DNA of 64,000 bases from positions 640,001-704,000 of the forward strand of contig JAHPZA010000006.1 of assembly GCA_019058445.1 (NCBI GenBank), written 5' to 3'. Source of the DNA: Promethearchaeota archaeon. Lineage in GTDB: Archaea > Asgardarchaeota > Lokiarchaeia > Sigyniarchaeales > SOKP01. Numbering within the stretch: position 1 is the stretch's first letter; each line of letters begins with the position of its first letter. Both the position numbers and the translations under genes were made by a program. This document shows positions 2,325 through 8,808 of the stretch, one piece after another. Under the pieces are notes generated by a model that was not told where the DNA came from, did no database searches, and saw only the letters and a program-made list of their open reading frames with translations.

Positions 2325-3164
2325 TTACGTCTTTAAGATTACATTTAAAAGTATTGGAAAATTTTTTTCGGCTCCATGGATTAGAAATAATCTATTTTTA
2401 ATAGGAATTACTGCTTCATTCCCAGCCAAAATCCATTCTCTTTGGATTTCTTCCTTTATATAGACTTTAGCACCTACATATCCATCAAATGTCGCATCTT
2501 CTATCTTTAAATCTATAAAACCTGGAATATCATGATTCCTAATTTCATATTCAGTTTTGCTTTTGTATGTTGCTAAGGCAGCTTTTATCAAGTTTTCATC
2601 AGTTTCAATATTTCGGTCATACTCAAAAATTATAAGTCCACAATCATTAGTAGGAAATCCTTTAGCAGCTACTAATTCATAATCAAAAATAGTTCTACTA
2701 AGCGATTCAGAACGTTCAATGACTTCCGATTTAATCCCCCATTTACGCTCAATAAGTGGTTTTAAATATTTTATAAAACCAGGATGAACATTTTCTAAAA
2801 TTATTTCTTTTTTCTCTTGAAATATTTTTTCAAGATTATCCCCTATGAAAATATAAGAGTCTTTAAGTTGCTTCAATTCGGTTTCATTCTTGTGGATGAT
2901 TTTATCTAACATTTTAATCGGTGAATTTGCGACATAGTGCGTTCTTTTAGGTTTTTTCTTGACTTCAATACCCTCTACCCAACCTTTTCCAATTAACCTA
3001 TCCAGAATTCCATATATGGTTGTGCGACCTATTTCTAGATTATCCTTTAACCTTCCGACCATATCACCATTCGAACCCTTCTCTAATAACGCTAGATATA
3101 CTCTTGCTTCTTCTGGAGTTAAACCAAACTGTATGAGTTTTTGAATGTATTCTTCATTAACCAA
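2325..3164 (-). CDS. TrmB-family wHTH transcriptional regulator with an uncharacterised C-terminal domain
   Basis: N-terminal LIQFGLTPEEARVYLALL...RTTIYGILDRLIGKGWV is the TrmB HTH signature. The C-domain is homologous to that of 5467..6762. Confidence 0.85.
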   Translation of the reverse strand: MVNEEYIQKLIQFGLTPEEARVYLALLEKGSNGDMVGRLKDNLEIGRTTIYGILDRLIGKGWVEGIEVKKKPKRTHYVANSPIKMLDKIIHKNETELKQLKDSYIFIGDNLEKIFQEKKEIILENVHPGFIKYLKPLIERKWGIKSEVIERSESLSRTIFDYELVAAKGFPTNDCGLIIFEYDRNIETDENLIKAALATYKSKTEYEIRNHDIPGFIDLKIEDATFDGYVGAKVYIKEEIQREWILAGNEAVIPIKNRLFLIHGAEKNFPILLNVILKT

Positions 3165-4052: not shown

Positions 4053-4763
4053 TTATTCTTCCTTTAGGAATCTCCTTTTAATCATTTCCGGCATCATAAA
4101 ACCGATATAAAACATAATCGCGCTTATGACTAATATCACGCGAAAAGGTGGAAAAGACAAAACTGTTTCTAAAGCCGCTCCTATCAGATATATCAGAAAT
4201 GCTAAGAGTAAGAATTTTCCCTTTAATTTAATCTCGGGTTTCTCTGATTGTAATGATCTATAAGCAAAATAAAAACCAGATATGATAAATATCACCAAAT
4301 CCAATAGAAGATAAATAATTAAAAATACTCCTAAATCGATATTAACTGGGTCTACAAGCACTCCTAAGACAGAAATATCTGAAAATAGGAAATATAGGAT
4401 TAATACCTCGAAAATTAGAGCATAGATAATATATGCACTAATTAGGGGTTTGAAATTCTTGATTCTAGTGAGGTCGTTTAATGCCACAAACCATACAGTT
4501 AGCGTTAATGAAATAAATGAAAATGTAATTAAAATATACCAAAAGATTGATAATCCGACACCATTAAATAAATAGACTAAGAAACTAATCGACGATCCCC
4601 ACCAGGGTTTACTCATCACTATCCACGTTATTCCTACTAGAATAAGAGTTTTTTGTTTGAATTCTCTATATTTTAACGCAATTTTTAAGCCTATTATTAC
4701 CGAAAAAATTACAAAAAGAAGGCTAAAAAGACCATTTATCACAATAGTAGTATCAATTACCAT
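4053..4763 (-). CDS. Lokiarchaeal multi-pass (~7 TM) membrane protein
   Basis: About seven hydrophobic segments. SEKPEIKLKGKFLLLAF loop of the kind seen in expanded Loki 7TM families. Confidence 0.75.
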   Translation of the reverse strand: MVIDTTIVINGLFSLLFVIFSVIIGLKIALKYREFKQKTLILVGITWIVMSKPWWGSSISFLVYLFNGVGLSIFWYILITFSFISLTLTVWFVALNDLTRIKNFKPLISAYIIYALIFEVLILYFLFSDISVLGVLVDPVNIDLGVFLIIYLLLDLVIFIISGFYFAYRSLQSEKPEIKLKGKFLLLAFLIYLIGAALETVLSFPPFRVILVISAIMFYIGFMMPEMIKRRFLKEE

Positions 4764-4893: not shown

Positions 4894-5451
4894 TCAATAT
4901 TCAAGAGAAAATGTATTTTTAATCCAATCTTCAATATCCTTATTTGAATTGCTTCGGGGTTGTGCACCTTTATAAATATTAATTTGTCGCTCTTCTTCCA
5001 TTTTCTTGGAAAGATCCCGAATTTCTGTTATATTCCCATTTTCAACTTGAATCTCAACCACCGTTCCAAAAGCCATTGGCCGCTGAAATCCCATATGGAC
5101 ATACATTTGCTGGATGAAATCTTTTGCTAACAATACTGTTCCTGTGAATTCTGCTTTCAGATTTAAATTTTGATAGCAATAGTCAAATATAGAATTACCC
5201 GTCTCTTTAGCCGTTATAGGTTCGACTCCATTAATCTCAGGAGGTTTTTTCGCATTTACTAACATTCCATCTAAGATTAAACGGTCGTTTGTAAATTTAT
5301 ATTTCATCACATACCCCCGCCAGCATGCTGTACATCTAAAATAAGATTGTATATCAAAATCTTCAGGAATGGGCAACTTACCACCCTTAAGACCCACAAG
5401 GGAAAATTTATCTCCATTATATAAAAATTCATCTGGGATTTGTGCTGTCGT
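4894..5451 (-). CDS. Conserved hypothetical protein (MTAQIPD...TACWRGY family), probable ACG start
   Basis: The frame stays open upstream of the track's GTG (5397) to ACG-ACA-GCA-CAA-ATC-CCA-GAT at 5451. GGAGG lies 8 nt upstream of the ACG. Confidence 0.75.
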   Translation of the reverse strand, partial: TTAQIPDEFLYNGDKFSLVGLKGGKLPIPEDFDIQSYFRCTACWRGYVMKYKFTNDRLILDGMLVNAKKPPEINGVEPITAKETGNSIFDYCYQNLNLKAEFTGTVLLAKDFIQQMYVHMGFQRPMAFGTVVEIQVENGNITEIRDLSKKMEEERQINIYKGAQPRSNSNKDIEDWIKNTFSLEY

Positions 5452-5466
5452 GATAAAAACCTCCCT

Positions 5467-6762
5467 CTAATATAGTTTTAAAATAATATCCATTATGTTT
5501 TGAAATTTCTCTTCTGAACCCCATATTACATATATTACGTTATCGATTGGTATTGCAACTTCTTTTATGGCAACAACCCAATCATGACCAATGTTATTTG
5601 CTATTTTACTACCCTCTTCAAACTTGAGAAGTATTGATGCTCCTAGATATTCTTGGACTTTAGTATATTCGATTTTCATCTCTTCAAAACCAGGGATGAC
5701 ACCCTCATTTTTTAATTTTTCAATCTGTTCTTCAATTTTATTATATACTAGATCTAGTTTATCACGAACTCGCAACTCATCAATTATATCTTTATCATAT
5801 TCGAAGAATATAATTCCGAAATCTTTTTCAAGCCCCATTATACCTAAAACATCAATGTCAAAGACTTCCCTACCCAAAGATCGAGAATCTTTATAACGTT
5901 CAGAGATATCTTCCCAGCCATTGCTAATGTATTCGTCTATTAACAGTCTGAAACTTTTAAGAATTTTTATCTCTTCTTCCTTTTCCTGAATTATTTTATT
6001 TACCAAGTCACCTATAGGCCTTGCTACATAAATTTGTGTACCTCTTGGAGTTTCTAAAACCTTCTCAACCCAATTTTTTTTCAAAAGCCGTTCTATTATT
6101 CTATATATTGTAGTTCTTTTTATAACTAATTCTTTATTCAAATTACCTACTGTTTCTCCTTTTTCTCCTTTATTAAGTAAGGTTAAGTAAACTCTTGCCT
6201 CATCCGGACTTAATCCAAATTTCTGCAATCCTAATGTCTGCAATATTTTGGAAGTATCAAATAAAAATTTAGTAGAAACCTCTTTGGTAAACGGATCTTC
6301 TTTACCTAATAAAACATCTGGGGCCATATAAGGTTCTTTTGTACTCATTAATCTTAATGTTCTTGAAGATAGAGTTATAACATCAATTAGCTGAACTAAT
6401 GTATCCCCTTCATCCAGAGAAATTTTACAAATTATCCCTCTTTCCTCATCTTTAAAACCAACTATAAAATCTTTTCGATTTGAAGAAAATGCAACTAGCT
6501 TGTCAAAGGTATTTTGTATAACTCTATAAATTATACCCATTATCTGAATTGTTTTTCCTTTCTCAGATTCCCATACAGAATTGATATTTTCTATATCTCC
6601 ACCAATATCCCAATTTAATGTAGAGTATATTAAATTGTATATTATTCTCTTCTTTTCTTCCTCTTCTCCCTTTTCTTCTTCAATTAATTCTATAATTGCT
6701 ACAGAATTTATATTTAAATCAGATTCCAGAAATGACTCTGCAATTTTTTCGTAGTTGGTCAT
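5467..6762 (-). CDS. Profilin-like domain fused to TrmB-family wHTH regulator and a shared C-terminal domain
   Basis: N-terminus VAII...IYSTLNWDIGGDI...VW...IQIMGIIYRVIQNTFDKLVA...IVGFKDEERGIICKI matches the Asgard profilin pattern. Centre LQKFGLSPDEARVYLTLL...RTTIYRIIERLLKKNWV is a TrmB HTH. Start at ATG 6762 is favoured by the TATA at 6802-6809; the track gives 6789. Confidence 0.8.
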   Translation of the reverse strand: MTNYEKIAESFLESDLNINSVAIIELIEEEKGEEEEKKRIIYNLIYSTLNWDIGGDIENINSVWESEKGKTIQIMGIIYRVIQNTFDKLVAFSSNRKDFIVGFKDEERGIICKISLDEGDTLVQLIDVITLSSRTLRLMSTKEPYMAPDVLLGKEDPFTKEVSTKFLFDTSKILQTLGLQKFGLSPDEARVYLTLLNKGEKGETVGNLNKELVIKRTTIYRIIERLLKKNWVEKVLETPRGTQIYVARPIGDLVNKIIQEKEEEIKILKSFRLLIDEYISNGWEDISERYKDSRSLGREVFDIDVLGIMGLEKDFGIIFFEYDKDIIDELRVRDKLDLVYNKIEEQIEKLKNEGVIPGFEEMKIEYTKVQEYLGASILLKFEEGSKIANNIGHDWVVAIKEVAIPIDNVIYVIWGSEEKFQNIMDIILKLY

Positions 6763-6869
6763 ATAGAGAGAAATTCTTTTACTTTTCATATGATCATTTC
6801 GTTATATAATTATAGTATAAATAAAAAAATAAAATAATTTACCCGCGAATTTTTTGATTTTATAGTAGG

Positions 6870-7070
6870 CTATTTGTATTTGTTTTTGAATTTTTCTTTT
6901 AAGTCTTTCAGCAAATCTTTCATACACTCGTTTTCTTTAGATCTTTGAATACGTGTAAAATCATTTAGCATTGAAAATCGCTCTGTTGGGGTTTTTTTTG
7001 CATTCTTTTGTTCATCTGCTTCATCTGATAAAAGTATGCAGGGAATACCATCTATCACTCTTATTTTCAC
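6870..7070 (-). CDS. Small hypothetical protein immediately downstream of actin
   Basis: GTG at 7070 preceded by a GGGTGAGG SD-like sequence. Ends in the amphipathic helix MKDLLKDLKEKFKNKYK. Confidence 0.6.
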   Translation of the reverse strand: MKIRVIDGIPCILLSDEADEQKNAKKTPTERFSMLNDFTRIQRSKENECMKDLLKDLKEKFKNKYK

Positions 7071-7112
7071 CAAATTCCTCACCCTAATTTGATATTTAAG
7101 ATAATTTGGATC

Positions 7113-8252
7113 TTAGAAGCATCGATGGATTACCTGAGGTCCCATTTCTTTATATTCGCGCCGAGTGATCCACATCCTATTAAAAGTCTTCAGAGATGCC
7201 AAGATCGACCCCCCGATCCACACAGAATACATTCTTTCGGGAGGGGATATGATCCTAACATCTACAGAATCCGGAATCTGTTCCTTAATTTCTTTAGCTA
7301 AACGCTCCTTGAATCCCGGATACATAGTAGAACCTCCCGAAAGAACGATATTCGAAAAAAGATCTCGCCTTAAATCTACATCACACTCGTAGATCGCCCC
7401 TACTATTAGATCATCTAATGGTTCCAGTTCTTTTCCTACAGCCGACGGATTGAAGAAACATTCGGGTGCGAGAAACCTCTCCACACCTACATTTATAGTT
7501 TCTCCATCAGGTAACATGAAACTTTTCTCCATTCCTGCCACTTTTTTGGAAAGCATTACCTCCTTTTCCGGATCTAAAGCGACATAACAGAGTTTTTCTT
7601 TTATGTCCCTGACGATCTCCATTTCGGCTGAACTCATAAGGGTCACTCCTTTTTGCCTCAATAGCCTCTGCAAATATCTTGTAACATCACGCCCTGCTAG
7701 ATCGACTCTCTCGATTGCATGACTTAACGCAAAGCCTTCAAAGATCGGTACAATATGGGAAACTCCATCACCGATATCTATGACCGTTCCCGTTACACGT
7801 CCTGAGGCATAAAGAGATAATACTGCCTGAGTTGCTACATATAATGCAGGAACGTTAAAGGTTTCAAACATGATTTCGCCCATTCTCTCCCTATTTGATC
7901 TCGGATTTAATGGAGCTTCGGTTAAAAGTACCGGATGCTCTGAAGGATCTATTCTTAAGTCTGTGTAAAATGTATAATGCCAGATTCTCTCCATAGAATT
8001 CCAGTCATCGACAATTCCATGCTCTATGGGAAAATTTAGTTTCATAACTCCCGAGAGTTCCGCAGCCTCCTCTCCGATATAATATTCTCTGGTAAAGTGT
8101 TTATACTCGGAAAGGATATTGTGATATTTTGGTGTGCCGATCATAGTAGGAAATACTGAACGAGGTTGATCCTCACCCGCATAACCGTTTTTTGAAATAC
8201 CTGTGCCGTTGTCTAAGACGATTGGTTTTGAAAGTTGCTCATGATCTGCCAT
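7113..8252 (-). CDS. Asgard actin (Lokiactin-like)
   Basis: DNGTG, FPIEHGIV, HPVLLTEAPLNP, FETFNVPALYV, QAVLSLYASGR, DIGDGVSHIVPI, LSGGSTMYPG, PPERMYSVWIGGSILASL, C-terminal IHRCF. ATG at 8252 has GGAGG upstream; the track's GTG 8267 overlaps that SD. Confidence 0.97.
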   Translation of the reverse strand: MADHEQLSKPIVLDNGTGISKNGYAGEDQPRSVFPTMIGTPKYHNILSEYKHFTREYYIGEEAAELSGVMKLNFPIEHGIVDDWNSMERIWHYTFYTDLRIDPSEHPVLLTEAPLNPRSNRERMGEIMFETFNVPALYVATQAVLSLYASGRVTGTVIDIGDGVSHIVPIFEGFALSHAIERVDLAGRDVTRYLQRLLRQKGVTLMSSAEMEIVRDIKEKLCYVALDPEKEVMLSKKVAGMEKSFMLPDGETINVGVERFLAPECFFNPSAVGKELEPLDDLIVGAIYECDVDLRRDLFSNIVLSGGSTMYPGFKERLAKEIKEQIPDSVDVRIISPPERMYSVWIGGSILASLKTFNRMWITRREYKEMGPQVIHRCF

Positions 8253-8450
8253 AATTTTTTCCTCCACTTTAATATCTTATTTTTTTTAGATTTTTATTGA
8301 GGAATCAAGCATGAATTTGATGATAAAAGTATTGTTTAGATTGACTTTGCCTAAAATCATCTACCGCAATATATTATCCAAATTCAGTATTGATTCCTTT
8401 GTTATTTTTTCCAAATTTTTATTACTTGATAATATAATAAAAATTCTACC

Positions 8451-8509
8451 TATATAAATCTTTGTCACCCTTCCGTGACAATCATGACACATGATCATAA
8501 CATGTGATT
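8451..8509 (-). promoter_or_regulatory. Putative actin promoter: TATA box plus an array of three palindromes
   Basis: tatataaa 8451-8458; TTGTCAC-N6-GTGACAA 8462-8481; ATCAT-N5-ATGAT 8481-8495; ATCAT-N5-GTGAT 8494-8508. Confidence 0.6.
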
Positions 8510-8808
8510 TAACAATCGAGGAAAAGACATTTATTGATTCAAAAATTGCAGAATCAATAGGATAAATATATTTTAAACAGTATAGACAAAATTCTTTGAG
8601 GGAAAAATTAAAATTACATATAATTTTTAAAAAAAATTGAACTAGGTAAGAAGATAGCAAAAATTACTTAATCTTTAACGTCAAATTATTTAAATAGTAG
8701 TGAAAACATTAATTTTTAGGATTAGTTCTATATTTAATGATCTACCTATCAGCATCATTATCATTACTTGATATTTCTTATTAAAATAATGAGGTTAATT
8801 TAATAACT

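Follow-up and report, generated by a model that had tools for sequence, protein, structure and literature searches.

Can the actin gene of an archaeon be controlled by the actin monomer itself, through a regulator in which a profilin and a DNA-binding domain are joined on one chain? The question is raised by a locus found in a stretch of 64,000 nucleotides (nt) of a Promethearchaeota archaeon genome (positions 640,001 to 704,000 of contig JAHPZA010000006.1, hereafter the window). According to the open reading frame (ORF) listing of the window, three genes follow one another on the minus strand: an actin, an ORF of 66 amino acids (aa), and a 431-aa protein made of three parts, in the order and with the sizes given by the initial annotation, which proposed that the third product is a profilin fused to a TrmB-type transcription factor. 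By sequence and predicted fold, this product belongs to both the profilin and the TrmB families. The evidence leans slightly towards a regulator that serves the actin operon alone and is gated by the actin monomer. Coordinates of all features are collected in Table 1.

Homologues of the fusion form 106 clusters, all from Asgard archaea (labelled Promethearchaeota or Lokiarchaeota), and measure about 400–470 aa if complete. The long ORF of the window spans positions 5467-6789 (minus strand); homologues and gene call start at M10, which gives a protein of 431 aa. Used as a single sequence, the N-terminal domain yielded only weak matches in the PDB (E values 0.1–0.4), to 5zza, 5zzb and 5yed. Next, 42 homologues were aligned (A1) and the N-terminal domain was cut out as a profile (A2). 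The profile matched LokiProfilin1 (5yed/5yee, 4e-16), LokiProfilin2 (5zzb, 4.4e-15), OdinProfilin (5zza_P, 4.9e-11) and a further archaeal profilin (7pbh, 8.8e-10), the next match being at 0.079. The entry 5yee is a profilin/actin complex (PMC10933270).

The structure predicted by AlphaFold2 (AF2) features, in order, a helix (residues 4-14), two strands (18-31, 38-47), a helix (54-63), five strands (71-74, 77-84, 88-93, 98-104, 108-115) and a long helix (121-139). The predicted local distance difference test score (pLDDT) is 84–91, and drops to 58 in an insert at aa 31-40. Profilins differ from the roadblock and longin folds in that a three-strand motif replaces half of the central helix (PMC10933270); this motif, and terminal helices packed on a seven-stranded sheet, are found in the model. 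Asgard profilins occupy ranks 1-5 in a Foldseek comparison with the PDB (E 2e-7 to 1.4e-6, TM-score 0.71–0.79 by target). Profilins of yeast, Acanthamoeba, human and plants and a monkeypox profilin-like protein follow at lower ranks, and the top 10 are all profilins. Roadblock, longin and GAF folds are ruled out for this domain, as none of them appeared in either the sequence-profile or the Foldseek searches. Sequence motifs quoted at the outset as profilin-like (AII, NWDI, IYRVIQNT, FKDEER..IICKI) are present, and conserved among the 42 family members. It is virtually certain that the first 139 residues are an Asgard-type profilin, as initially proposed. The acidic insert noticed in the first beta-hairpin is likewise real. 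It is a lineage-specific trait, confined to the fusion of the window and its 2–3 closest relatives (1–3 of the 42 aligned members), and lies outside the predicted actin interface. Nothing was found in support of the sensing of phosphoinositide-type lipids, which had been put forward beside actin as a possible input.

The TrmB winged helix-turn-helix (wHTH) reported after the N-terminal domain was recovered as a match to Pfam PF01978 at aa 179-247, which scores 54.8 bits (cut-off 25.6) and covers profile positions 1–64 of 68. Its recognition helix, KRTTIYRII, is conserved. Pfam returned nothing over the first 175 residues, and public annotations list the fusion as a TrmB family or helix-turn-helix protein. 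The long helix that follows the wHTH is presumed, from the model, to be a dimerisation coiled coil as in TrmB and TrmBL2, and the C-terminal two thirds of the protein match TrmBL2 in Foldseek (5bpd, E 7.5e-4, about 300 columns). The terminal alpha/beta domain is common to the fusion and to a profilin-less TrmB paralog encoded in the window. Comparison of its profile with the PDB gave nothing below E 0.2, and the best Foldseek match was PsbP-like (E 0.038). A wide VIA-align search reached at best Z 5.8 (DcrB, root-mean-square deviation 4.8, 93 aligned residues; also Apa and Mog1), a value within the range of common arrangements. The sugar-binding effector domain of classical TrmB and TrmBL1 has no Pfam match in the fusion; TrmBL2 and TrmBL3 are known to be without it, so the domain does not define the family as a whole (PMC4158304).

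Binding of actin by the profilin head was assessed by complex prediction, in which the neighbouring actin (six syntenic actins aligned) was paired with fusion residues 1-168 (42-row alignment). The runs reached ipSAE values of 0.70, 0.72 and 0.70, the best control 0.00; of 80 solved complexes 58 pass the mark used, as do 2 of 110 mismatched pairs, counts that are rough here because our own alignments were used. The score may reflect memory of solved profilin-actin structures, hence likeness rather than binding. At least 71% of the contacts are common to the runs, and the pLDDT of the partners is at least 78. On the actin side the interface is made by residues 129-133, 144, 148, 171-177, 291-293 and 351-379, which mark the barbed-end cleft between subdomains 1 and 3. 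On the side of the fusion it is made by strands 80-105, the C-terminal helix 116-137 and residues 144-154 of a linker. The actin-contact surface assumed for the N-terminal domain is thus borne out at the level of prediction, controls included (0.70 vs 0.00). The contacted actin surface diverges by 6%, against 19% elsewhere. The contacted residues are almost invariant and are the same in the actin of the locus and in the housekeeping actin described below: no paralog specificity was seen in them, and the head could therefore read either pool. On the whole, it is reasonably likely that actin binds the profilin head.

The linker deserves mention, as few stretches in the N-terminal half of the fusion are so well conserved, and no element outside the domain cores is better conserved. 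P144 is found in 95% of the members, Y145 in 83%, L152 in 79%, G153 in 83% and K154 in 81%. Disordered in the AF2 model of the monomer, the motif comes to lie in the predicted complex against residues 130-133 and 366-372 of actin, where the expected errors are lowest.

The distribution of the fusion was surveyed with a profile in 400 genomes of the phylum; 135 of these belong to the family of the window. As these genomes are related, counts across them are descriptive and are not independent tests, and absences are weakened by incomplete genomes. Full-length fusions were found in about 45 genomes, all in this one Lokiarchaeial family and spread across four genera; none was found in the other families scanned. 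There was no match in two single-contig genomes (4.4 and 6.0 Mb) of another family, presumed to be those of cultured strains. Gene neighbourhoods were judged at 28 loci, which are the best 30 minus the locus of the window and those cut by contig ends. In 28 of 28 an actin lies immediately upstream on the same strand. Synteny with actin in relatives, on which the initial proposal had been made to depend, is consequently found at every genome locus that could be assessed. These actins are 77–82% identical, the fusions themselves only 44–52%. Among metagenomic contigs carrying homologues (40–51% identical), actin, small ORF and fusion are on one strand in 5 of 6, and the outer flanks differ. Recurrence of the same order at 28/28 genome and 5/6 metagenomic loci indicates that the arrangement is not due to chance. 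Two layouts were distinguished, one with the small ORF (actin-fusion gap of about 280 nt) and one without it (about 50 nt). As the small ORF is absent from the second layout, it is dispensable, and the actin-fusion pair is the invariant.

The stretch suggested at the outset as a DNA-binding target (8440-8520) contains a conserved palindrome that is unique in the genome. Within the 555 nt upstream of actin, it reads TGTCAC-GGAAGG-GTGACA on the minus strand, and the position of the B recognition element (BRE) overlaps its edge. In all of 20 aligned promoters, the proximal GTGACA half-site is succeeded, 2–4 nt further on, by TTTAAATA or TTTATATA. In relatives the half-sites are invariant and the spacers unrelated, and the half-sites are found upstream of the cluster actin (the actin adjoining the fusion) wherever enough upstream DNA is available, at a fixed distance from TTTAAATA. 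The 4.6-Mb genome of the window contains one exact copy, none with one mismatch, and 25 with two (29 for a reversed control). Among the 135 genomes of the family, the exact palindrome occurs once in 31 and never twice, the reversed control in none. The fusion is borne by 28 of these 31 genomes, and every site that could be placed among those is upstream of the cluster actin. In three genomes the exact sequence was seen without a scored full-length fusion, at G152:C191:183-200, G212:C428:856-873 and G235:C4:5624-5641, at least one of these sites being at a contig end. A few loci have one extra half-site; otherwise there is one palindrome per genome, and housekeeping-actin loci have none.

In one fusion-bearing subclade both half-sites are changed symmetrically, to TGTCGC-N6-GCGACA, and an extra proximal GTGACA is present. 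Of the six genomes that have the variant, five belong to that subclade, and in these it stands upstream of the cluster actin. The subclade shows no change in the recognition helix KRTTIYRII, and its differences, limited to the wing and flanking residues, are not diagnostic. Half-sites that do not vary, spacers that do, symmetric co-variation and a constant place in the promoter together form the signature of an operator to which a dimer binds. The palindrome is very probably a functional cis element, and the fusion is likely to be the protein that binds it. The profilin-less TrmB paralogs are unlikely binders, since they are also present in genomes that have neither fusion nor palindrome. The site recognized by TrmBL1/Tgr is TATCAC-N5-GTGATA (PMC4158304), from which the palindrome differs by a single base in each half-site and by one base in spacer length. 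Sites of the TrmB family mediate activation when upstream of BRE/TATA and repression when downstream (PMC4158304); the palindrome touches the BRE position, so that either sign of regulation would fit. A second palindrome, CACATG-N7-CATGTG, also unique in the genome, is imperfect in the same-genus relative L060 and only partly kept within the genus.

The actin controlled by this promoter is not the only one of its type. Lokiactin is the most conserved actin homologue according to Rodrigues-Oliveira et al. (PMC9834061). The genome of the window encodes a second actin, 84% identical to the first, on contig C2, with no fusion adjoining. Two such actins each were found in three other complete fusion-bearing genomes, and one in each of two complete fusion-less genomes, a small sample. 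Maximum-likelihood analysis groups the stand-alone actins of five genera in a tight clade (support 100/100, tip lengths 0–0.036), and the cluster actins fall apart from it, with longer branches. Mean identity is 98.2% among stand-alone actins, 83.5% among cluster actins, and 82% between the two groups. The accessory actin and the housekeeping actin (in the genome of the window, L015:1498-2643, minus strand) are set apart by fixed differences, concentrated at residues 37-54, in the region of the DNase I-binding loop (D-loop), and at residues 65-85. Judged from these sequences, the neighbour of the fusion is an accessory, faster-evolving Lokiactin paralog and not the housekeeping Lokiactin, and the D-loop differences hint that the two may not co-polymerise.

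These elements can be assembled as follows. A dimeric fusion would bind the palindrome at BRE/TATA, and would control the unit made by actin, 66-aa ORF and fusion, hence itself. Profilin domain and EPYM..LGK linker would clamp the barbed-end cleft of monomeric actin. The predicted contact of the linker stops some 15 residues short of the wHTH, so that a bound actin of 42 kDa should alter or block operator binding. The output of the promoter would then follow the pool of free monomers, as a negative feedback. The sign may be either: the fusion could be an activator sequestered by G-actin, or a repressor needing G-actin as co-repressor, and both schemes would be homeostatic.

Several observations weigh against this chain, besides the possible effect of memory on the complex score. 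The interface of the profilin domain is not preferentially conserved, its entropy being 2.22 bits against 1.92 for the rest (Mann-Whitney p 0.09, in the wrong direction; the test is weak, as the comparison set includes the buried core). Pfam Profilin (PF00235) has no match in the fusion at E up to 1; as the canonical 134-aa profilin of the same genome also just misses the cut-off (24.9 vs 25 bits), PF00235 appears insensitive to Asgard profilins. The most divergent member of the fusion family (P0109, 36% identity), found on a metagenomic contig, lacks both an actin neighbour and the palindrome. Twelve fusion-bearing genomes are without the exact palindrome, several of them at contig ends or with one-mismatch or N4 variants. 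Another factor could bind the palindrome instead of the fusion. The small ORF and the fusion are separated by DNA with a T-rich stretch and a TATA-like element, so that the fusion may also have a promoter of its own. The lack of preferential conservation at the interface and the Pfam result would also suit a local regulator which acts through the palindrome and re-uses the profilin fold for another end: oligomerisation, contact with a different protein (the 66-aa product, or a proline-rich partner), or binding of a lipid or small ligand. So would the location of the most conserved surface residues (N50, W51, W64) outside the predicted actin interface, and the fusion of the same profilin-plus-linker module to unrelated effectors, which implies that the partner need not always be actin. 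Such re-use is rather unlikely, given that the closest relatives of the domain are profilins solved with or alongside actin, that actin is the only invariant neighbour of the fusion, and that the prediction places the head in the canonical cleft, with the conserved linker on actin and controls at 0.00.

The order of site, actin and DNA-binding adaptor is that of parC-parM-parR, and in the predicted complex the adaptor enters the barbed-end cleft. The locus might accordingly be viewed as a DNA-actin tether like ParMRC, in which the palindrome is both centromere-like and a promoter site, and the fusion holds it on the barbed end of filaments made of the accessory actin, so as to position or segregate DNA, repressing the operon secondarily, much as ParR represses its operon at parC. 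A separate, fast-evolving actin with D-loop differences (aa 37-54) would be in keeping with filaments that are kept distinct from the housekeeping system. Yet there are at most one and a half sites per genome and no iteron array, and the palindrome sits exactly at BRE/TATA, as an operator does. Moreover, profilin is a monomer binder that departs from the barbed end once the monomer has been added, which makes it a poor processive tether, and the locus is on the chromosome, neither plasmid nor viral context having been seen at the examined loci. The tether is improbable on these grounds. A shade more so is a true Asgard counterpart of ParMRC built from genuine actin and profilin, where the Lokiactin paralog would polymerise on the palindrome-clamped adaptor, and so position or partition DNA. 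Likeness of the C-terminal two thirds to TrmBL2 (5bpd, at the E value given above) and failure to detect a sugar-binding effector domain are also compatible with a nucleoid protein of the TrmBL2 type, which would coat DNA non-specifically and bring profilin activity to the chromosome, with no dedicated operator. A palindrome that is genome-unique, conserved and co-varying argues instead for a specific regulator of a single target, and only about a third of the genomes of the family have the fusion; a coating role is barely credible. The actin-gated regulator of the operon remains the reading that we favour.

Compared with the Asgard profilins (Loki profilin-1 and -2, and Odin profilin; 5yed/5yee, 5zzb, 5zza), the head of the fusion is homologous in sequence, with the same predicted fold and actin cleft. 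Known Asgard profilins (Akil & Robinson 2018) are single-domain proteins of about 120–140 aa. Unlike these, the domain of the fusion features a C-terminal linker motif, an attached DNA-binding regulator and an acidic hairpin insert. With TrmB, TrmBL1 and TrmBL2 the fusion has in common the wHTH, the long helix, the likeness to TrmBL2, the palindrome at BRE/TATA and the autoregulatory placement (PMC4158304). In contrast to the TrmB family, a protein-binding profilin at the N-terminus is the presumed sensor, and the regulon is apparently a single promoter. We infer that the fusion is a one-component TrmB regulator with an unprecedented protein-binding sensor. In the full-text literature, which leaves part of the subscription papers outside, neither a profilin-TrmB fusion, which the initial annotation had taken to be undescribed, nor the operator, nor a separately regulated second Lokiactin was found to be described.

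The proposed logic is that of MRTF/SRF in animals, where a transcription factor binds monomeric actin, and expression of actin genes follows the monomer pool. MRTF features RPEL motifs, is imported into the nucleus and acts through SRF. The two systems are not homologous: in the fusion the profilin is itself part of the DNA-binding chain, and no nucleus is present. RPEL motifs were not found in a Pfam scan of the fusion at E up to 1, and the likeness to MRTF is functional only. With ParMRC the locus has in common the order of cis site/promoter, actin-fold ATPase and DNA-binding adaptor, as well as the predicted position of the adaptor at the barbed-end cleft. It differs from ParMRC because the actin is of the Lokiactin type (82% identical to the housekeeping clade) and not ParM, the site is a single palindrome and not a set of iterons, the adaptor is made of wHTH and profilin rather than of a ribbon-helix-helix, and the context is chromosomal.

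Table 1. Features of the actin-fusion locus, in window coordinates
Feature	Coordinates	Strand	Basis or remark
Profilin-TrmB fusion protein, 431 aa	5467..6762	-	106 homologous clusters and AF2 model
Profilin domain, aa 1-139	6346..6762	-	profile vs PDB, Foldseek, AF2 model
Acidic insert EEEKGEEEEKK, beta1-beta2 hairpin, aa 26-42	6637..6687	-	pLDDT ~58
Linker motif S-T-K-E-P-Y-M-x-P-x-x-x-L-G-K, aa 140-155	6298..6345	-	42-member alignment
TrmB-type wHTH, aa 170-247	6022..6255	-	Pfam PF01978, 8.6e-15
Long helix after the wHTH, aa 250-280	5923..6015	-	AF2 helix
C-terminal alpha/beta domain, aa 305-431	5470..5850	-	separate AF2 model, pLDDT 80.8
Accessory Lokiactin-type actin paralog, 379 aa from ATG at 8252	7113..8252	-	Pfam Actin, 2.2e-128
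66-aa ORF	6870..7070	-	GTG start, GGGTGAGG just before
Candidate operator, perfect palindrome TGTCAC-N6-GTGACA	8463..8480		conservation and genome-wide counts
TATA box TTTATATA	8451..8458	-	4 nt downstream of candidate operator
Second palindrome CACATG-N7-CATGTG	8488..8506		just upstream of candidate operator
167-aa protein, no known family	4894..5397	-	directly downstream of fusion
236-aa multi-pass membrane protein	4053..4763	-	recurs beside profilin-domain genes
279-aa TrmB paralog, same C-terminal domain, no profilin	2325..3164	-	sequence comparison with fusion

The 66-aa product is conserved at the protein level at 13 loci, with the motif IK.IDGIPCI.L ... L..LK.KF. Among 1.84 billion representatives it has 56 clusters, all of 53–112 aa; it has no Pfam match, and its relatives are found only within its own family of small proteins. 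The small ORF is tandemly duplicated in one relative (L001:5524-5721 and L001:5727-5921) and absent in another genus. The 167-aa protein has a 64%-identical homologue directly downstream of the fusion in locus L002, and may be a facultative fourth member of the module; it has no match in Pfam, and an Atlas features search returned unnamed bacterial clusters below the recognition mark. Homologues of the 236-aa membrane protein lie downstream of the fusion in loci L001 and L007. A paralog (L011:2518-3156, plus strand; 38% identity, E 7e-35) is found directly after a 233-aa long profilin on contig C9. Neither the window protein nor the L011 paralog has a Pfam match. The 279-aa TrmB paralog is 36% identical to the fusion over wHTH and C-terminal domain (E 2e-41).

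Profilins followed by a linker are not restricted to the fusion. The genome of the window encodes one canonical profilin of 134 aa and three long ones (258, 201 and 233 aa) with helical or basic tails, at L009:1477-2253 (plus strand), L010:1483-2088 (plus), L011:1501-2202 (plus) and L012:1378-1782 (minus). Two of the long proteins (258 and 201 aa) have the linker motif after the profilin domain, as KEPYM/SHYM..LG. Frames of the long-profilin type, of about 205 aa, occur in nearly all genomes of the family. In relatives, a 435-aa protein features an N-terminal profilin, the KEPY..LGK linker and a leucine carboxyl methyltransferase (LCM) domain (Pfam LCM, 1.5e-33). It was found at L065:577-1884 (plus strand) in genome G184, and at L066:647-1912 (minus strand) in genome G128, which belongs to another family. 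The profilin-LCM protein adds a second type of profilin fusion, which at least two Asgard families have. Profilin and linker together make up a portable module, joined to a transcription factor, a methyltransferase or helical tails.

The locus can be described as a compact three-part system, made of one promoter/operator, one actin and one regulator with a predicted actin-binding head. Some Lokiarchaeia carry a second Lokiactin, which in the proposed view would be separately regulated. Neither of the genomes presumed to be those of cultured strains scored a match to the fusion, and this may be why the module stayed unnoticed. Feedback from the actin monomer pool to transcription, as in MRTF/SRF, is treated as an eukaryotic elaboration. 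Actin may control its own gene in a prokaryote, and if the profilin head gates DNA binding, a feedback from the cytoskeleton to the gene would already have existed in archaea.

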